From assembly GCA_046483495.1 (NCBI GenBank), contig JAWODC010000050.1, positions 1-11,417 of the forward strand: a DNA stretch of 11,417 nucleotides. Reading direction: 5' to 3'. Shown here in pieces: positions 1-11,417 of the stretch (position 1 is its first letter; every line of letters begins with the position of its first letter). The stretch is from Desulfobacterales bacterium (GTDB lineage: Bacteria; Desulfobacterota; Desulfobacteria; Desulfobacterales; UBA5616). A program made the translations under genes and the position numbers. The notes under the pieces were generated by a model. It made no database searches. It saw nothing but the letters and a program-made list of their open reading frames with translations, and was not told where the DNA came from.

Positions 1-84
1 ATACTGAGGCCGTATCTGCCACATATCGTGATTGGAGGGGGTTGGGCGCCGTTTCTCTATGATCGCTATCTTTTTAAAAACCAT
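1..84 (-). CDS. 5' end of an unannotated gene truncated by the window edge (fourth gene of the PKS operon); product uncertain
   Basis: ATG at 84 lies 9 nt after the PKS stop. A GAGG SD overlaps the PKS TGA, 7 nt before the ATG. The frame is open to base 1: MVFKKIAIIEKRRPTPSNHDMWQIRPQY. Too short for the ORF track. Confidence 0.65.
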   Translation of the reverse strand, partial: MVFKKIAIIEKRRPTPSNHDMWQIRPQY

Positions 85-93
85 GCAGATGCC

Positions 94-1152
94 TCAAAAA
101 ACGACCAGCGCGCCGAATGCCGTAAAACCCGCTCCGAAAGACAGGATCAGGCCCATTTGGCCGGATTCGGGACTGTCCCGCTCGAGCATCCGCTTTAACA
201 CATACATCACCGTCGGCGATGACATATTGCCGTAATCCCTGAATATTTCGTACGAAAACCGCAGCTCCTCCTCCGTCAGCCCCAGCCTTTCCTCGATTTT
301 TCGAAGAACCGAAGTTCCTCCCGGGTGGACAATCCAACGGTTTATGTGTTCGAAAGTAAGGCCGTTGCGCTTGAGGATGTTTTCAACGACCGCCGAAACA
401 GCGTTGGCGCCGAGTACCGGAACCCGTCTGCCGAGGACATTGCGAAGCCGCCCCTGTTCGGTCCGGTACCGCAGGTGCTTTCGTTGCCCGGGATAGCAGA
501 CGGCCTCAAAATCCATCAGGTAAAGAAGCCCCTCTGCATCCTTGTTTCCAACCGCCCTGACAATCGCCGCCGAAGCGCCGTCCCCGAAAATCGCGTTGCT
601 GATGACCAGGCCGGGATCGTCACCAAAAAACATGGTGGCGGAACAGATTTCGACGGCAATGCTTAAAACCGGCTTTTCCGGCCGCCCCATAGCCCATCCG
701 GCCGCACATTCGAGATTCGGCACCGCCCCGCCGCATCCCATGCCCTGGATATCCAGTGTTTTCACCATGGGGCCGAGTCCAAGCGCCTCGTGAACATAAG
801 AGGATAAGCCCGGGCAAAGGTAACCGGTGCACGTGTTGACAATAATGCCGCCGATTTCCTCCGGGCCGCAGCACGCCTCTTCCATGGCCTTTCGAGCCGC
901 TTCGACCGCAAGCCGCGTTCCGATTCGGCAATGGCGCTCCGTCATACGGTCCGGATCGTACACCAGCGCCTCTTCGCGGCGGTCGAAAGCAAAATAGCGC
1001 CCTCGTATGGGGCCTTCCAGCAATACCCGCCGATACAGTTCACGTTCGTTTTCCGACATCTGGAGATGCTCGTCATAAAAAGCGAAAACCTCGTTCTGAG
1101 TTGCATACAACGGCGGATTGGCCGTGGAGAGTGCTTCAACCATCCGTTTCAT
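94..1152 (-). CDS. Type III polyketide synthase (chalcone/stilbene synthase-like), 352 aa
   Basis: Catalytic triad motifs GMGCGG (Cys), IVHPGG (His) and YGNMSS (Asn); also TCTG, EICS, IFGDGA and SFGAG. Start placed at ATG 1152 (MKRMVEAL), which forms an ATGA overlap with the methyltransferase stop. Confidence 0.95.
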   Translation of the reverse strand: MKRMVEALSTANPPLYATQNEVFAFYDEHLQMSENERELYRRVLLEGPIRGRYFAFDRREEALVYDPDRMTERHCRIGTRLAVEAARKAMEEACCGPEEIGGIIVNTCTGYLCPGLSSYVHEALGLGPMVKTLDIQGMGCGGAVPNLECAAGWAMGRPEKPVLSIAVEICSATMFFGDDPGLVISNAIFGDGASAAIVRAVGNKDAEGLLYLMDFEAVCYPGQRKHLRYRTEQGRLRNVLGRRVPVLGANAVSAVVENILKRNGLTFEHINRWIVHPGGTSVLRKIEERLGLTEEELRFSYEIFRDYGNMSSPTVMYVLKRMLERDSPESGQMGLILSFGAGFTAFGALVVF

Positions 1153-1961
1153 GCGAAAAATATCCTCCGGCATCCATAGGTGAGCGGCATACATGTTTCA
1201 CAAACAGGATACCCTTTTTTTTCGGCACCTGTTCCGCCATGTATAGTTGGAGTGTTCTCCATGGGGTTAAACTCCACCACGGCCCGAATCCGGAAAAGGG
1301 GCGCATGGCTCACCTGAATCGACGCATCACGGATGGTGCCGAGGAGTTCATGCATTTCAGCTGTTTTGAAGCTTTTACGAACAGAGAGCAACGCGTCGTG
1401 CTCGACACACTTCGGCAAGGGCCACACCAGGAGCCGGCATCCGAAATAACCCAAAACGTTCCTGCAAAGGTCGTTGATCAACAGGCTTGTGCGTACAAAA
1501 GCCCGAAGCCGCTGCACAAGTTCCAGAATGCCCGCTTCACTAAGATGATGAAAGAACATGGAACCCACGGCGCAGTCATAGGCCTTTTCCGGGAAATGGT
1601 TGAAAATGTCGTCCTGAATCATCTCAATGGGCAGGTTCGTTCCGGCCACCTTTTCCGAACCGATCCGGAAGGCATGCCGCCCGTTTTCCACACAGGTGAA
1701 ATGGATGCTGTGCCCTTTTTTTTCAGCCCATCGGCAGACCGAAATGGGTATGTCGCAACTGCCCGACCCGATGTCGAGGATTCGAAGTATCCGATCTTCC
1801 GGTGTTCGAGCGATTTGTGACGACACAAACCGCCGCACGATCCGTGTACCGCCGAGGAACCGGTTGACAAACCCGATAAAGCGGAAACTCTGTTCGGCGG
1901 AAATCCTGCGAAATTCCGGATGATCCATCCCCTCCGGTTCAGTGGCGCGGCAATCGAACAT
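1149..1961 (-). CDS. Class I SAM-dependent methyltransferase of the type commonly linked to type III PKS
   Basis: SAM-binding motif ILDIGSGSCD; FFHHL, INDL.R and HDALLSVRKSF motifs; N-terminal R.TEPEGMD. Overlaps the U32 gene by 23 nt and the PKS by 4 nt. Confidence 0.9.
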   Translation of the reverse strand: MFDCRATEPEGMDHPEFRRISAEQSFRFIGFVNRFLGGTRIVRRFVSSQIARTPEDRILRILDIGSGSCDIPISVCRWAEKKGHSIHFTCVENGRHAFRIGSEKVAGTNLPIEMIQDDIFNHFPEKAYDCAVGSMFFHHLSEAGILELVQRLRAFVRTSLLINDLCRNVLGYFGCRLLVWPLPKCVEHDALLSVRKSFKTAEMHELLGTIRDASIQVSHAPLFRIRAVVEFNPMENTPTIHGGTGAEKKGYPVCETCMPLTYGCRRIFFA

Positions 1962-3150
1962 TCCAAAGCCCCCCGTTGATCATGGACGCGTGAACGGTGT
2001 CGTATTTCGCCAGCGCTTCTTTCCGAAAATCGTCATCGACAAAAACGGCGGCCGCGGCGATATCGGCACAATAGCCGCACCGGTCGCAGCTCAGCACTTC
2101 GCAGTCCCGGTGTTCGAATCCCTGGATAAAGTCATCCGGTATACGGGAGGATTCGATCCAGACAGGGCTTTGTGCCTGCGGAAACAGCATCCCCTGGCTT
2201 CGGACCAGTTCATAGAGCGCCTTTATTTTAAACGGACTTATCTGGATCGGTTTGAAAAAATGTTTAACGATCCACGAGATTCCTTTGGGCGGCGTTTCTT
2301 TAAACCCGTAAGGAAGAAGAAGCTCGGCAAGATTGCCCTGGAATGTGCGTTGACTGTAGGCAACCACCCGTTTCAACAATTCGGAAGAAGGTATATTGCG
2401 TTCGATCAGTTTGAAGGTCGAGTAGCCGAGCGCCTCATATACGTGAAGATCCTCGGGTCTGATCCATGCCGATTTGATGTATAGGGAAGGATCCGCAAGC
2501 CGTTTTTCCGAGCATCGCAGAAAACAGTAATCGATGAACACCCCTTTCGACCCGTCCGACGCATGGGCAAATCCATTCTGATGATACGGCTGCATGGCGC
2601 AATTGGGCAGGCATGGATGATTTGCGATCAGCTGGAGTTCGCAATCCACCGCTTCCCGAATAGCGGCAAGCCGCGGGAAGTTTCGATTGATGGAGAAACT
2701 TTCCAGGTTAATGGCATCCGCCCCGAGCTCTTCCCAGAATTTCGCCCGCCGTGGTGTATCCACCTGGGCGTAAATGCCGATCTTGACAAAAAATTCCGGA
2801 AATCGTTTTTTGATAAGCTCCATCATGTAAGGTGTCGAAACCGTAAGCCGTCGAATCCCCATATCGCCCAGTTTTTCAATCAGGCGCATCACCTTTTTCT
2901 GCCATGAACGCTGCCACTCGCGGTTTCCTGTGCAGGAACTGTTGAGCAGGTAGTTGAAATGAATACCGTGCCGCTCGAGCTCCGACACATAACCGGCCAG
3001 TTTTTTTTCGGAAAGGGACGTTCCCATGAAGCCGGCCCTACCCCCTCCTACGCAGTCGAAGGGAAGCTTTCCGTAAACTTCTTCGACCGGATAAGGCTTG
3101 AGTTTCGGAATCAATTCCGGATCATAATTTGCCGCAAGGGTTAGTTTCAT
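1939..3150 (-). CDS. Peptidase U32 family protein (putative Fe-S, O2-independent hydroxylase), 403 aa
   Basis: U32-like motifs EVYGKL..GGGR, FNYLLNSSC, INRNF..L..IR, LQLIANHPCLPNC, YCFLRC, SAWIRPEDL and FKLIER; C-terminal CEVLSCDRCGYC. Start placed at ATG 3150 (MKLTLAANYD); the 79-codon ORF extension to 3387 crosses a hairpin and looks non-coding. Confidence 0.85.
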   Translation of the reverse strand: MKLTLAANYDPELIPKLKPYPVEEVYGKLPFDCVGGGRAGFMGTSLSEKKLAGYVSELERHGIHFNYLLNSSCTGNREWQRSWQKKVMRLIEKLGDMGIRRLTVSTPYMMELIKKRFPEFFVKIGIYAQVDTPRRAKFWEELGADAINLESFSINRNFPRLAAIREAVDCELQLIANHPCLPNCAMQPYHQNGFAHASDGSKGVFIDYCFLRCSEKRLADPSLYIKSAWIRPEDLHVYEALGYSTFKLIERNIPSSELLKRVVAYSQRTFQGNLAELLLPYGFKETPPKGISWIVKHFFKPIQISPFKIKALYELVRSQGMLFPQAQSPVWIESSRIPDDFIQGFEHRDCEVLSCDRCGYCADIAAAAVFVDDDFRKEALAKYDTVHASMINGGLWNVRLPRH

Positions 3151-3411: not shown

Positions 3412-4791
3412 TTATTCCCGGTCCGGCCGGTATTCCGAAGGCTTCAACCCGTACTTTTTCATGAGCTGATAGAGGTCTGACCTGTATTTACCGGATAATT
3501 CAGCGGCTTGGCTCATATTTCCCTGGGTCAGATCAATGAGACGGGAAAGGTATTTCTTCTCGAAGTCCGCTTTTGCCGCCTTGAACGGCCGCAATGGCTC
3601 TATGGCCTGCCTGTGATTTCTGAGGATCGCATCTTCACCGATCACATCGGTTCTGGACATAACAACGGCGGACTCCACCTCGTTTTTCAATTCGCGGATG
3701 TTTCCGGGCCAGTCGTATAAGGACAGCATCTGCATGGCGCCCGTTGAAAATCCTTTGATCTGCCGCTTGTTTTTTTTGCAGTATTTTTTAAGAAAGAAAT
3801 GCGCCAGCAGCGGGATGTCTTCTTTTCGTTCTCTCAGCGGCGGGAGCTTAATCACTACCACGTGAATGCGATAAAAAAGGTCCTCCCTAAAATTCCCTTT
3901 TTCCACCTCCGCCATTAAATCCCGGTTCGATGTGGAAATCAACCGGGTATCCACCGTTATCACTTTGTTGCTCCCGAGGGGATAATATTCTCCTTCCTGG
4001 ACAACCCTGAGCAGTTTGGTTTGAAGAGCCATGGGCATTTCGGAAATTTCATCCAGGAAAAAGGATCCGCCGTTGGCCTGTGCGAAAAACCCCTGTTTGC
4101 GACCGACGGCGCCGGTAAATGCGCCTTTTTCGAACCCGAAAAGCTCGCTCTCAAATAGTGTATCGGGAATAGCCGCGCAATTGATCACGACAAACGGATT
4201 GTCCCGCCTCGGACTTGCGGCATGTACGATTCGCGCGATGAGCTCTTTGCCGGTTCCGCTTTCTCCTTCGATGTACACGCTGGAATCCGTCGCTGCCGCC
4301 TGGACCACCTGTTCGAAGACCAGCTTCATTTTCCCGCTTTTGCCGATGACGCTTTCGAATCCGTATTTCTGTTCCAAAAGCGGTGGAAGGCTCTGGACTT
4401 TTTTCAAAAATTTTTTCTGCTCCAGACATGCATCGATTTGCGACAGAAGGTTTCGGTGATCGAACGGCTTCCGAATATAGCTGACAGCCCCCTTTTGCAT
4501 GGCCTCCACAGCACTGTCGACCGTACCGTATGCCGTTAAAATGATAATCGGCATTTCGGGGTTGATCTCATGAAGCTTTTCCATCAGTTCGATGCCGTTT
4601 TCATCGGCAAGCTTCAAGTCGACGAGCGCCAAGTCGACGGGGTTTTCAATTGCCCGGCTTACCGCGGTCTCCACGTTATCGGCGGTATTCACATGGTAAC
4701 CCTCGGCCTCCAATCGCATTTTAATGATTTTCAGGATATTTCGATCGTCATCGGCAACCAGGATATTGACGTCACCGTCAGTTGTCTTCAT
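3412..4791 (-). CDS. Sigma54-dependent NtrC-family response regulator (GlrR/QseF-like): receiver, AAA+ and Fis-type HTH
   Basis: Receiver ADDD, LVDLKL (phospho-Asp) and KPF; Walker A GESGTGKE; ESELFGFEKGAFTGA; Walker B FFLDEI; FREDLFYRI and WPGNIREL; HTH GNMSQAAELSGKYRSDLYQLMKKYGL. Confidence 0.95.
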   Translation of the reverse strand: MKTTDGDVNILVADDDRNILKIIKMRLEAEGYHVNTADNVETAVSRAIENPVDLALVDLKLADENGIELMEKLHEINPEMPIIILTAYGTVDSAVEAMQKGAVSYIRKPFDHRNLLSQIDACLEQKKFLKKVQSLPPLLEQKYGFESVIGKSGKMKLVFEQVVQAAATDSSVYIEGESGTGKELIARIVHAASPRRDNPFVVINCAAIPDTLFESELFGFEKGAFTGAVGRKQGFFAQANGGSFFLDEISEMPMALQTKLLRVVQEGEYYPLGSNKVITVDTRLISTSNRDLMAEVEKGNFREDLFYRIHVVVIKLPPLRERKEDIPLLAHFFLKKYCKKNKRQIKGFSTGAMQMLSLYDWPGNIRELKNEVESAVVMSRTDVIGEDAILRNHRQAIEPLRPFKAAKADFEKKYLSRLIDLTQGNMSQAAELSGKYRSDLYQLMKKYGLKPSEYRPDRE

Positions 4792-4932
4792 GCTACCGCT
4801 CCCATTCTAACTTTAAAAAGCTCTGTTGTTTTTGTGTTGTATTTCAAATAATATATAGCTGTTTACATAAACCTTAAGATTTAAGTTTTTGGATTTTGGG
4901 ATCACGATCCAAACGATTCCAACGATACACAA

Positions 4933-5523
4933 TCATTTCTGTTTCCGATCCTCCATATTCAAATCGATACTCTTATATTCTTCGATTTGAGATTCCAACT
5001 CGGCGATACGGTCTTTCAAATCTCCCATTTCCGTTTTCTGACAGCTCACCTTTTTTTGGTATGCTTCGGCCGCCGTTTTCAGTTCCGCGATGGTTCCTTC
5101 CAATTCTTCGATTCTACCATCGTATTCATACGACATGGATTCATATCGATCAAAATAAAAAACCAGCATCCTCGCCGGTTCGACCAGGCAGCTATCCGGA
5201 TGCTCATCGATCATTTCCCGAAAACAGGCCGCTGATTTTTCCGCATCTCTGTTCGGATTGTGGGGGTGTCCGAGAATCACCGCTCTCTGGAACAATGCCA
5301 TATCATCGTGCATGCCCAGGGGGTGTTCAGATATTTTCTGATTTTCCGCCAGTGCCGCCTCGAAATCGTTGACGCGGATCAATCGATCCGTTTTAACGAT
5401 CGACATATCCTCATTACGAAGGTTATGCATCATCTTAGAGCACCCTGGCGCCATTAACACGCAGCACAAACACGCAGTGTAAAATAAAACGTGCTTCCTT
5501 TTCCCGCTGTACTTTCTACCCAT
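4933..5523 (-). CDS. Putative lipoprotein with TPR-like helices and C-terminal coiled coil (positional QseG analog)
   Basis: Basic N-terminus, hydrophobic stretch and lipobox-like MAPG-C; GHPHNP..D.EKS..CF..M...HPDS segment; heptad-rich C-terminus ending KSIDLNME. Lies between kinase and regulator. AGGGG SD upstream. Confidence 0.8.
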   Translation of the reverse strand: MGRKYSGKRKHVLFYTACLCCVLMAPGCSKMMHNLRNEDMSIVKTDRLIRVNDFEAALAENQKISEHPLGMHDDMALFQRAVILGHPHNPNRDAEKSAACFREMIDEHPDSCLVEPARMLVFYFDRYESMSYEYDGRIEELEGTIAELKTAAEAYQKKVSCQKTEMGDLKDRIAELESQIEEYKSIDLNMEDRKQK

Positions 5524-6923
5524 ATTTTTCCCCTGTGAGCTGAAATGATATGCTTGGCGATCGAAAGACCGAGCCCGGTGCCCCTGACCGTCTCCTTGCC
5601 GCTTTCGATACGCTGGAACTTGTCAAATATACGTTTTAGGTCCTCCTGCTTAATGCCGGACCCGGTGTCGGAAATCGATATTTTCAGATAATCCCCGTCT
5701 TCCGGATCACGCGAAAGCCGGATGCAAACCGAGCCGTCTTTCGGCGTATACTTCAGCGCATTTCCCAGCAGATTCTCCATCACCTGTTCGATCCGCTCTT
5801 TATCGATCGCCACATACGGAACAGCGTCCGACAGGTCCAATTCCAGCTGGATGCCTTTCCGTTCGAAAAGCGGACGAATCTTGGAAACGGATTTCTCGAC
5901 GATGCACTTAAAATCCATGGATTCATAATGATATGTCATCATGCCGCCCTCCATGCGCGACAGGTCGAGAATCCGGTTGACGGAGGTGATTAAGCGTTCG
6001 CATTCATCATTGATGAGCACCAAAAGTTCGTGCTGCTTTTCGATGCTGTCCCGGTAAGTGCCTTCCAGCAGCATATTGGACCCCTCCTTGATTATGGTCA
6101 GGGGAGTGCGCAACTCGTGGGAAACATGGCTGACGAAGTCGATTTTCATTTCTTCCAACTCTTTGAGCCTTTCGCACATGACGTTGAAATCATGATCCAA
6201 TTCCATGATTTCAGGCGGGGACGTGATGGCGGAAACCACTTCGAAATTCCCTTCTGAGATATCCTTCGTCTTTTTTTTAAGGATGGATATCGGCCGATTG
6301 ATGCTTCTCGTATTGAAGAAAGAGATCAATATGCCCAGAAATATGACCATACCCACGGTGATAGCCGTGAAATTGAGGACCAATTGACTGATGCGATTCG
6401 AAGCCCTGATCATTTCATCACTGGACTGACGCGAAATTTTGATGATTTGGCCCAGGCTTTTGTCCAGGTTATCGATCAGATGGTCTTTTTTGTTTCGATA
6501 CGCCTCAATAGAATAATCGGCGTTGATTTTAATAAGACCGGCCTCTTCCCTGAACACCGCCAGGTATCGGGCATAAAGACGACGAGCCTCTTCGACCATC
6601 GTCTTTTTTTGGGGCGTGGCGGCCAGATTCTCGAGTTCGGTCAACCCGTCGAGAAAGCGATTGGATGTTTTGTAAAATTGATCATGGAAATCCGAATCCC
6701 GGGAAACGAGGTATTTTTTTTCGAAGGCCACCTGGGAAAACAGTTCGTCTGAGAGGTGCTGGGACAATCGTATGGCGGCGCCGTCAACCAAATCGATGGT
6801 TTTGTTGAGGTAGTGGATTTGATTCAGTTTGATCGTTGTATATCCTCCCTGGAACACGACCAATACCATAATGGCGGCGTACCCCAGGGAAAGTCTTCCA
6901 AAAATGGTCAATTTCATCATCAT
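5454..6923 (-). CDS. Membrane sensor histidine kinase (GlrK/QseE-like): 2 TM, periplasmic helical domain, HAMP, HisKA, HATPase
   Basis: Two hydrophobic segments; HAMP (INRPI..L..EI.EL..DFN.M); H-box FVSHVSHELRTPL; N-box ENLLGNALKY; G1 DTGSGI; F-box IFDKF; G2 GTGLGL. Start is one of three tandem ATGs (6923/6920/6917). Confidence 0.95.
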   Translation of the reverse strand: MMMKLTIFGRLSLGYAAIMVLVVFQGGYTTIKLNQIHYLNKTIDLVDGAAIRLSQHLSDELFSQVAFEKKYLVSRDSDFHDQFYKTSNRFLDGLTELENLAATPQKKTMVEEARRLYARYLAVFREEAGLIKINADYSIEAYRNKKDHLIDNLDKSLGQIIKISRQSSDEMIRASNRISQLVLNFTAITVGMVIFLGILISFFNTRSINRPISILKKKTKDISEGNFEVVSAITSPPEIMELDHDFNVMCERLKELEEMKIDFVSHVSHELRTPLTIIKEGSNMLLEGTYRDSIEKQHELLVLINDECERLITSVNRILDLSRMEGGMMTYHYESMDFKCIVEKSVSKIRPLFERKGIQLELDLSDAVPYVAIDKERIEQVMENLLGNALKYTPKDGSVCIRLSRDPEDGDYLKISISDTGSGIKQEDLKRIFDKFQRIESGKETVRGTGLGLSIAKHIISAHRGKIWVESTAGKGSTFYFTLRVCAAC

Positions 6924-7287: not shown

Positions 7288-7818
7288 TCAGCCGAAAAAC
7301 ATCCGGTTCAGGATCTGCCGGGCCGAGAGCGCATGCCGGTTCAAACCCTGGTAGAATTCCCAGAACGCCTGTGTCACGAAACAGGGATATGCTGTGGTGC
7401 AGACCATCGGTCTGGCATCAAATGAAAAGAAACATCCGTTTGGGCACAACAGCGGGCATTGATGACGGACGCCGTTCGTGTCGAGCTTCTCAGCGAGTTC
7501 ATCGTGTTCAGCCGCTGTCAGGAAATGCGGGGAAACGAAAAAATCCACGGGCGCCAGATTTTTCGGAAACTGCCGCACACAGCATTGCCCTTTGCAGATG
7601 TGCATAAGTTCCCTGCATAATTTCGAAAAACCGAGGCGCTCGGCCTCGGACTCGATTCGGCATTTGATGCTGTAAAGCCTTCGAATCCCGGCCTTTGCAT
7701 GCGGTTTGTCGACATGGGACAATCCCTGATAAGCCTTCCGTGCGGACCGGAAGGCCTTTTGCATGGTGGTCCGTGTGCGGTCGGTCGCTTTGTTGCAGCG
7801 GCACAGCGTGCTTTGCAT
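7288..7818 (-). CDS. Cys-rich hypothetical protein resembling the YkgJ/UPF0153 (CxxCxxCC, Zn/Fe-chelating) family
   Basis: Motifs LCRELMHICKGQCC, CPLLCPNGC and ARPMVCTTAYPC. Starts 12 nt after the nudC stop; an alternative start is ATG 7764. Confidence 0.7.
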   Translation of the reverse strand: MQSTLCRCNKATDRTRTTMQKAFRSARKAYQGLSHVDKPHAKAGIRRLYSIKCRIESEAERLGFSKLCRELMHICKGQCCVRQFPKNLAPVDFFVSPHFLTAAEHDELAEKLDTNGVRHQCPLLCPNGCFFSFDARPMVCTTAYPCFVTQAFWEFYQGLNRHALSARQILNRMFFG

Positions 7819-10177: not shown

Positions 10178-10197
10178 GGATGGGAATCTATTTATTT

Positions 10198-10484
10198 CCC
10201 CCCCATCCCGGCCTTCCCCCTCCAGGTGGGAAGGGGAGATGCAGCGGCAATTGTCAGTGATTCCACTTCCTGCTTTTTAGATCATATTTTCAAGCGGCTG
10301 CTTCGCGCCGCTTTCCTCGCAACACCTTTAGCCCCATAACCCGACCGTGAGCGAAGCGAACGGCACTTTTATTTACTTGTTGAAAATTAAGGCATTACGA
10401 TCAGTGGACTCGCGGCGCAGCATGTCCCCTTCACCCCTGGAGGGGGAAGGCCGGGATGGGGGGGATAAAGACCCGATCCGATTT
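10198..10484 (+). mobile_element. Non-coding element copy 1 (REP-doublet/MITE-like) with 49-bp terminal inverted repeats and a 20-bp conserved tail
   Basis: 10198-10246 matches the reverse complement of 10416-10464 at 45/49 (first 29 perfect). Homologous in inverted orientation to 11099-11383. The repeat is certain; mobility is inferred. Confidence 0.75.
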
Positions 10485-10550
10485 GGCTTTGAGTACCTTT
10501 CAGCCGATAACTGACAGCCCGTATTCAACGATCTTCGATCCACAAGCCAT

Positions 10551-11040: not shown

Positions 11041-11098
11041 TAAAGATAGTGAACGGTGATTCTATTCTAAAGATAGTGAGCGTTGAACAGTGAACAGT
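11041..11098 (+). repeat. 12-bp direct repeat TAAAGATAGTGA x2 followed by degenerate heptamers (TGAACAG)
   Basis: Identical 12-mers at 11041-11052 and 11068-11079, then tgagcgt tgaacag tgaacag up to the edge of element copy 2. Confidence 0.7.
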
Positions 11099-11383
11099 AA
11101 ATCGGATCGGGTCTTAATCCCCCCCATCCCGGCCTTCCCCCTCCAGGGGTGAAGGAGAGTTGTTGCGACGAAAGTCCAATAATCGTAATGAGTTAATTTT
11201 CAACAAGTAAACAAAAGTGCCGTTCGCTTTGCTCACGGTTTGTTTTTCTGGTCATGGTCATATTTGCAAGCGGCGCGAAGCAGCCGCTTGAACGGACTTC
11301 TAAAAAAACGGGGCATTGGAAAAACGGTCATCTGTCGCTGCATCTCCCCTTCACCCCCTGAGGGGGAAGGCCGGGATGGGGGG
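11099..11383 (-). mobile_element. Non-coding element copy 2, inverted relative to copy 1
   Basis: TIRs CCCCCC(C)ATCCCGGCCTTCCCCCTC.. start at 11119 and end at 11383. Internal blocks 11268-11292 (25/25) and 11193-11239 (45/47) and tail 11099-11118 (19/20) match copy 1 in reverse complement. Confidence 0.75.
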
Positions 11384-11417
11384 TCAGCTGCCTGTGAATT
11401 CCCCCCACTCAGCTTTG

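Follow-up and report, generated by a model that had tools for sequence, protein, structure and literature searches.

A U32-family protein gene recurs beside type III polyketide synthase and methyltransferase genes and is a candidate oxygen-independent hydroxylase of phenolic lipids

Gene clusters that combine a type III polyketide synthase (PKS), a methyltransferase (MT) and a flavoprotein are known to yield methylated, hydroxylated alkylresorcinols or alkylquinones (PMC6836626, PMC10896814, PMC13730376, PMC6669644, PMC9927152). The hidABC cluster of Cyanobium gives rise to hierridins (PMC6836626), and in srsABC of Streptomyces griseus and pkqABC of Mycobacterium smegmatis and Streptomyces MNU77 a PKS, an MT and a hydroxylase lead to alkylquinone-type lipids, SrsB being an ICMT-type MT and SrsC a flavin adenine dinucleotide (FAD) hydroxylase (PMC13730376, PMC6669644) and the PkQs having been described as electron carriers in hypoxia (PMC9927152). 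In the UbiU/UbiV(/UbiT) system, hydroxylation of an aromatic lipid under anoxia relies on U32-family iron-sulfur (Fe-S) proteins in place of flavin hydroxylases, and prephenate donates the oxygen (PMC10990095, PMC10470549). Here we describe an 11,417-nucleotide stretch of DNA from a Desulfobacterales bacterium (the whole of contig JAWODC010000050.1, C60 in our numbering; hereafter the window), in which a U32-family protein gene, an MT gene and a type III PKS gene form, in this order, a three-gene cassette on the minus strand. This cassette recurs across several bacterial phyla. Its genes and the open reading frame (ORF) beyond them are as follows:

1939..3150, minus strand: U32-family protein, 403 amino acids (PF01136, 26 bits), a candidate Fe-S, O2-independent hydroxylase
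1149..1961, minus strand: class I S-adenosylmethionine (SAM)-dependent methyltransferase, 270 amino acids, PRK06202-like (NF004851, 125 bits; cut-off 243)
94..1152, minus strand: type III PKS, 352 amino acids, catalytic triad C140/H276/N309 (PF00195 and PF02797, above cut-off)
1..84, minus strand: start of a 32-codon ORF, 28 codons visible, most likely not a gene

On analogy with the systems above, we consider it probable that the U32 protein is an Fe-S, probably prephenate-dependent, O2-independent ring hydroxylase that replaces HidB/SrsC-type enzymes. The type III PKS would build a phenolic core, probably of the alkylresorcinol type, the MT would methylate it, and the U32 protein, with predicted Fe-S clusters and prephenate as in UbiU/V, would then hydroxylate the ring without O2, as a non-homologous stand-in for the HidB/SrsC-like or UbiH-like flavoproteins that occupy the same slot elsewhere; a lipid of the hierridin-like or alkyl(hydro)quinone kind would result. 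The order of steps is inferred from the known PKS-MT-flavoprotein clusters and from the replacement of flavin hydroxylases by UbiU/V, as are the hydroxylation chemistry, Fe-S binding, prephenate use and the class of the product, the last being the weakest step, with no characterised member found in the PKS clade. What makes O2-free hydroxylation of a phenolic lipid a likely function is that U32 genes repeatedly stand where related clusters have a flavin enzyme.

The cassette works like hidABC or srsABC and is a member of neither. The initial annotation had taken srsABC as its model, and the logic of PKS, MT and hydroxylase holds; SrsB, however, is ICMT-type, and hidABC and the MT-FAD oxidoreductase-PKS operon of Planctomycetota, which share with the cassette a PKS, a class I MT and a third redox gene (PMC10896814, PMC6836626), are closer than srsABC. 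The MTs of the planctomycete operon are detected by NF004851, as is the window MT, all with scores below the cut-off of that model, and the neighbours of the operon are not conserved; the likeness to hidABC itself is drawn from published descriptions. In the hidABC type an FAD oxidoreductase lies between MT and PKS and the PKS makes C15/C17 alkylresorcinols; the window MT overlaps the PKS directly and a U32 gene is present instead of the flavoprotein. The ICMT-type MT and FAD hydroxylase of srsABC and pkqABC belong to families that are both absent from the window, where the MT is class I and not ICMT-type; clusters with ICMT and FAD genes occur in another PKS clade (L193). A literature search whose coverage left out most subscription journals yielded no paper on a link between U32 and type III PKS, and PMC10896814 and PMC13730376 mention U32 zero times.

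The reading frames of the U32 and MT genes overlap by 23 nucleotides (nt; 1939-1961), read directly in the sequence, and MT and PKS share the ATGA at 1152-1149, given a PKS start at 1152, where homologue alignments begin at the same Met and a GGAGG lies 11 nt upstream. Both overlaps had been pointed out in the initial annotation together with the intact PKS triad, and all are present. The cassette is likely co-translated and would be transcribed as an operon. A fourth gene had been added to this operon, beyond a 9-nt gap to an ATG at position 84; three of the genes and the gap itself stand, and the fourth is a 32-codon ORF without relatives. Window bases 1-191 are the last 191 bases of contig C39, their sole other match in the genome, and on C39 this ORF ends 4 bases short of a tRNA-Pro(TGG) gene, whose 3' end faces it on the opposite strand; its 28 visible residues had no match in Pfam, NCBIfam or the 101 loci compared. 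Past the tRNA gene, C39 continues with an amidase gene and housekeeping ORFs read by eye as tig, clpP, clpX and lon, and no downstream FAD hydroxylase that could take over the proposed role of the U32 protein was found there. Assembled contigs from a public DNA run cover the MT-PKS junction at near identity and span the U32-MT overlap, with no long flanks on both sides. In one RNA run, two near-identical 151-nt contigs (one in MT, one across the U32-MT overlap; share 0.06) were too little for a statement on expression, and a promoter and terminator scan of the cassette remained at chance level.

Conserved linkage of U32 and PKS, on which the proposed pathway depended, is borne out. Among the genome loci from a pattern scan, PKS and MT lie beside U32 in 10/10, spanning Planctomycetota, Desulfuromonadales, Muiribacteriota and Victivallales, with another gene order in L006 and frameshifted pieces in L001 and L008. 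Of 599 candidates from a metagenome scan, 562 were confirmed, and the best 80 of these, many of them on short contigs, comprised 37 with MT and PKS (36 in an ORF-based recount), 12 with PKS only, 5 with MT only and 26 with neither; the 32 loci flanked by 2 kb or more on either side included 24 with PKS and 21 with PKS and MT, figures that the recount left unchanged. In three phylum samples, full-length U32s of the window clade were accompanied by PKS and MT in 7/7 cases: G000 and G054 in a sample of 350 genomes, G061, G160 and G342 among 300 Planctomycetota, and G065 and G1002 in a further 300 genomes. Two of these seven copies come from sampling centres chosen for carrying the cassette, and one is the window. 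A U32 fragment in G338, also from the 300 Planctomycetota, has an MT beside it at a contig end. Neighbouring U32s, which may be upstream, downstream or convergent, occur in four or more clades with support of their own in a 117-row PKS tree; the U32-linked PKSs of L026, L027 and L050 are nested among planctomycete HidB-type clusters, and L026 has MT and PKS directly adjoining, without an intervening flavoprotein. In L029 (4828-6195) and L030 (5257-6624), what appears to be a deletion fusion places MT and the C-terminal part of PKS in one frame, which converges with U32. Plasmids held no close PKS and one distant U32, and an all-versus-all clustering of neighbours was dominated by antisense ORFs.

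U32 and flavoprotein genes exclude each other almost completely at the level of the locus, an exclusion that the initial annotation had suggested testing: of 122 PKS loci, U32 without a flavoprotein occurs in 57, a flavoprotein without U32 in 49, both in 1 and neither in 15, counts that mix differently anchored samples and kin. Matches to the MT family occurred in 148 of the 300 Planctomycetota genomes, and the best 60 PRK06202-type MT loci, which were fetched, showed a HidB-like flavoprotein in 47, a UbiH-like one in 2 more, U32 in 3 and both in none. At least seven changes between U32 and flavoprotein states are required on the 117-row PKS tree, where the window PKS clade is distinct from that of the planctomycete operon PKSs and comprises 42 rows, 40 beside U32 and 2 (L137, L138) beside a UbiH-like flavoprotein; in L137 (300-4210) and L138 the PKS is divergent from the UbiH-like flavoprotein gene, a UbiE-like MT and a PRK06202-like MT, and both loci come from genomes in which neither CoxA nor cytochrome bd was found. 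Within the phylum of the window genome, a type III PKS was found in 23 other genomes, from which 20 loci were fetched and one more later. In one PKS clade with 99% support, the slot after the PKS is taken either by FAD_binding_3 (L188, L189, L197) or by a U32 of the clade sister to that of the window (L190, L192, L196, L199; partial in L227), and by neither in L191 and L198. L188, L190, L191 and L196 have a YceI gene upstream, and L188, L189, L190, L196 and L199 have a UbiE-like MT next in line. The two kinds of occupant show parallel in-frame fusions, U32::UbiE in L190 (672 amino acids) and FAD::UbiE in L189 (667 amino acids), with UbiE domains 45-54% identical across the two cassette types. 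The flavoproteins of this slot match aromatic monooxygenase and UbiH/F models best, below the cut-offs of those models. With their UbiE-like and lipid-binding YceI genes, the sister cassettes recall the UbiU/UbiV/UbiT system.

A split between U32 and flavoprotein by oxygen lifestyle, likewise put forward for testing in the initial annotation, is seen within Planctomycetota and not overall. Taking as CoxA any match to A-type cytochrome c oxidase with E up to 1e-30, we found it in 0/5 U32-cassette genomes and 46/47 HidB-like genomes of that phylum; a terminal oxidase is a crude proxy for oxygen lifestyle, and the genomes are incomplete. G617 shows only cytochrome bd. The window genome encodes chorismate mutase and MenB, while futalosine-pathway MqnA/D were not found in it; with MenB present, the predicted cassette product need not be the main quinone.

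The window U32 protein passes PF01136 narrowly (gathering cut-off 22.4), its top ESM Atlas matches carry PF01136 at 0.97-0.98, and 1533 relatives were found in a clustered database. No NCBIfam U32 model matches it, and no Pfam domain besides PF01136 was detected, so DUF3656, a feature of RlhA, is absent. It consists of a triosephosphate isomerase (TIM) barrel (residues 1-270) and a C-terminal region with the motif CX4CX2CX2C. The predicted structure (pLDDT 85) shows the TIM barrel, which TrhP, RlhA and Mk0906 share, and the archaeal U32 Mk0906 (PDB entry 5d88) is the nearest solved structure by sequence and fold, ranking first in Foldseek (E 1.8e-11) and in VIA (Z 18.6, next 15.0; root-mean-square deviation 3.2, 217 aligned); the C-terminal domain modelled alone was uninformative (pLDDT 70, best fold Z 5.2). 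C180/C184/C213 and C350/C355/C358/C361 are near-invariant (131-134 of 134 wider-family sequences), with C73 in 116/134 and C209 in 87/134, and judged from sequence this set would suffice for two Fe-S clusters.

The protein is not TrhP, RlhA or UbiU/V. In a FastTree phylogeny of 103 U32 rows, the window falls in a 23-row clade with support 99, distant from the RNA enzymes, so that the grouping with tRNA or rRNA hydroxylases that would have spoken for another role is not seen; the sister group includes further U32s linked to PKSs and one that belongs to an aminodeoxychorismate cluster in Bacillus, and long branches make the deep nodes and the placement of UbiV unreliable. Against the clade profile, the E. 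coli proteins score 18.9 (TrhP), 7.6 (RlhA), 4.9 (UbiU) and -2.9 bits (UbiV). UbiU and UbiV form a pair, whereas the window genome has a single gene of this clade and no ubiU-ubiV-type pair; they also differ from the window U32 in Cys spacing, in profile similarity (<5 bits) and with respect to its four-Cys C-terminal motif, and its predicted substrate is a polyketide, not a prenyl compound. TrhP and RlhA are set apart by their separate clade, by a Gln in the window U32 at the position of a conserved Glu, by the missing DUF3656 match and by the biosynthetic context of the window gene. A TGA considered as selenocysteine in the U32 of G054 is merely its C-terminal stop.

Because the window PKS is no more than a distant relative of the characterised enzymes, the product class is uncertain. 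The DpgA model NF042429 gave 174 bits, below its cut-off of 425, and the residues of the PKS cavity failed to separate or discriminate PKS clades. In a PKS clade adjoining that of the window (L183, 2935-5444, and similarly L184 and L185), a gene for a B12-binding radical SAM protein precedes the PKS; in L183, the one of the three that was scanned, its best model is TIGR04072, below cut-off, and it is possibly another O2-independent tailoring route.

Several findings weigh against a ring hydroxylase. The window PKS is far from characterised enzymes (best PDB match 126 bits), Cys spacing in the window U32 is CX3CX24CX3C versus CX6C in RlhA and TrhP, and a Glu (RlhA E161, TrhP E162) that is essential in TrhP and largely so in RlhA (PMC6599085, PMC5727448) aligns, in a rough alignment to distant references, to Q173, where 50 of the 134 wider-family sequences have Q and 27 have E. 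The hydroxylase role of HidB is inferred in PMC10896814 and PMC6836626, and HidB-like proteins score best to a geranylgeranyl-reductase model; PMC10990095 (2024) presents direct catalysis by RlhA or TrhP, and direct hydroxylation in vitro, as still to be demonstrated. As to linkage, U32 itself was the selection criterion for the U32-anchored loci, a lone U32 with neither PKS nor MT is seen in 8 of the 32 well-flanked metagenome loci, six planctomycete sister-clade U32s have no PKS within ~5 kb, two of the five sister-clade-U32 genomes tested (G244, G274) have no PKS that we could find, and G344 combines a lone U32 with a complete PKS-FAD-MT cluster elsewhere. L078 carries U32 and flavoprotein together, and independent-pairs tests, which are underpowered, gave 7 pairs from 96 rows, with 3.5 in the expected direction and 0 against (median p 0.125), and 6 pairs from 57 rows under a stricter filter (p 0.5), so that neither reached significance. 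Lastly, CoxA is present in 3/10 window-clade genomes (the window genome, G063 and G065) and in 4/4 PKS-linked sister-clade genomes, and G329 and G227, which have a UbiH-like flavoprotein, show neither CoxA nor cytochrome bd. Lone U32s can be read either way: in G549 the slot of a PKS-UbiE locus is empty while a U32 stands alone at another site, an arrangement that fits action in trans.

The slot need not always be a hydroxylase slot, and the U32 protein might act on the PKS product otherwise, by oxidation of the acyl chain, another redox step or another group transfer; we regard this as unlikely. The geranylgeranyl-reductase likeness of HidB-like proteins and the Gln in place of the conserved Glu would suit such a role, as would the UbiH-like genes in the two genomes without an oxidase found, the neighbours of the wider U32 clade (B12-radical SAM, LuxC/LuxE, KAS/ACP, the aminodeoxychorismate cluster) and the oxidoreductase of G. 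maris, whose role in C. glutamicum is left unresolved in PMC10896814. It accords poorly with the flavoprotein partner in the fusion pair, which has GxGxxG and GDAAH motifs and its best score to aromatic monooxygenase models, with the description of SrsC as a hydroxylase (PMC13730376, PMC6669644), and with the U32 proteins described as characterised in the cited papers, all of which serve hydroxylation.

It is rather improbable that the U32 protein has a substrate of its own and travels with the PKS on mobile stress or lipid islands, PKS and MT making a methylated phenolic lipid alone. PKS-MT operons without a third gene exist, including that of S. maiorica (PMC10896814), several of the eight lone metagenome U32s stand among general-stress-like genes read by eye, and the cassette is patchy, being present in 1/60 relatives and lying at a synteny break beside a tRNA gene. 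Against it stand the presence of U32 beside four or more PKS clades, whether upstream, downstream or convergent, the in-frame fusion of a U32 to the UbiE-like MT of its cluster and the near-exclusion with flavoproteins, and the G549 loci fit action in trans. Very improbable is an RNA-hydroxylation factor like TrhP or RlhA that lies beside the PKS by chance: the Pfam family is the same and a tRNA gene is nearby, but the E. coli proteins reach at most 18.9 bits against the profile of a clade separate from theirs, the protein matches none of the NCBIfam U32 models, separate TrhP/RlhA-like genes are present in the genome (on C86 and C75), and a tRNA or tmRNA was seen in 2 of the 26 related loci scanned. 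Finally, a collagenase-like protease, as in JGI names such as 'collagenase-like PrtC family protease' and as reported for two U32 members (PMC5727448), is scarcely credible, for such names are automatic, and both the biosynthetic setting of the gene and the seven near-invariant Cys speak for an enzyme with a metal cluster.

More distant U32s adjoin B12-radical SAM, LuxC/LuxE, KAS/ACP, MMPL and YceI genes, neighbours which suggest that the wider U32 clade is a general lipid-tailoring clade. Tandem pairs of the window U32 group, reminiscent of UbiU/UbiV, occur in lipid-like clusters in L225 (4282-6746; with YceI, MMPL, KAS and B12-radical SAM), L229 (4982-7431; with LuxE/LuxC and B12-radical SAM) and L231 (2928-5335). 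On a Bacillus wiedmannii plasmid (CP024685.1; L203, 6655-16861), a U32 relative with 40% identity over 286 amino acids is clustered with pabA/pabB and with genes for 4-amino-4-deoxychorismate mutase, a DAHP synthase, three ATP-grasp-type proteins and an MFS transporter, so that this U32 has an (amino)prephenate supply of its own. Lone U32s of the sister clade lie beside anthranilate synthase component I (L165, 549-3262) or a radical SAM/SPASM gene (L166, L167), and the U32s of L038, L055, L056, L079 and L021, lone or in a cassette, are found amid islands read by eye as general-stress islands, with alpha/beta hydrolase, ferritin-like and aldo-keto reductase genes.

At the break in synteny, two family relatives (G002, G003) differ from the window genome. 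Upstream of the cassette, on the minus strand (3412-6923), are genes for a sensor kinase, a small coiled-coil protein and a sigma-54 response regulator, which are probably unrelated to it since different genes follow them in G002 and G003, where a gene read by eye as a multiheme cytochrome comes after the sigma-54 regulator. Integration of the cassette at tRNA-Pro was considered and set aside: the tRNA 3' end has no nearby repeat, the sole other 25-nt match being on C81, and, with relatives not tRNA-linked, there is no evidence of site-specific integration. The GC content of the cassette (54%) is close to that of the genome (51%). Farther along the window are a Cys-rich 176-amino-acid ORF without a Pfam match, downstream of a NudC-like gene (7288-7818, minus strand), and inverted repeats of ~290 nt (10194-10504 and 11066-11403; 82% alike) that flank cutA, have many copies on other contigs and resemble repetitive extragenic palindromic elements or miniature inverted-repeat transposable elements.

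U32 proteins have been sorted into twelve subfamilies (PMC5727448). Most U32 subfamilies are uncharacterised, and O2-free hydroxylation of a phenolic lipid, a likely role of the U32 protein described here, was not found in the literature on the family, again with most subscription journals outside the coverage. We see about even chances for the wider proposal that the Cys-rich U32 clade represents undescribed stand-alone, two-cluster, prephenate-dependent hydroxylases for specialised metabolites, which took the place of flavin monooxygenases in type III PKS clusters on several independent occasions and whose wider relatives serve other lipid and peptide clusters in anaerobes; they would then be the first aromatic hydroxylases of natural-product biosynthesis to draw on an organic oxygen donor in place of O2. 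A single soluble U32 protein, with a substrate that the neighbouring PKS could make, would offer a simple system for the study of prephenate-dependent hydroxylation. If the ring-hydroxylase role is true, U32 chemistry would extend from RNA and ubiquinone to specialised metabolism, many genes named 'collagenase-like protease' would be flagged as tailoring enzymes in genome mining, and anaerobes would gain a route to hydroquinone- or quinone-type lipids.

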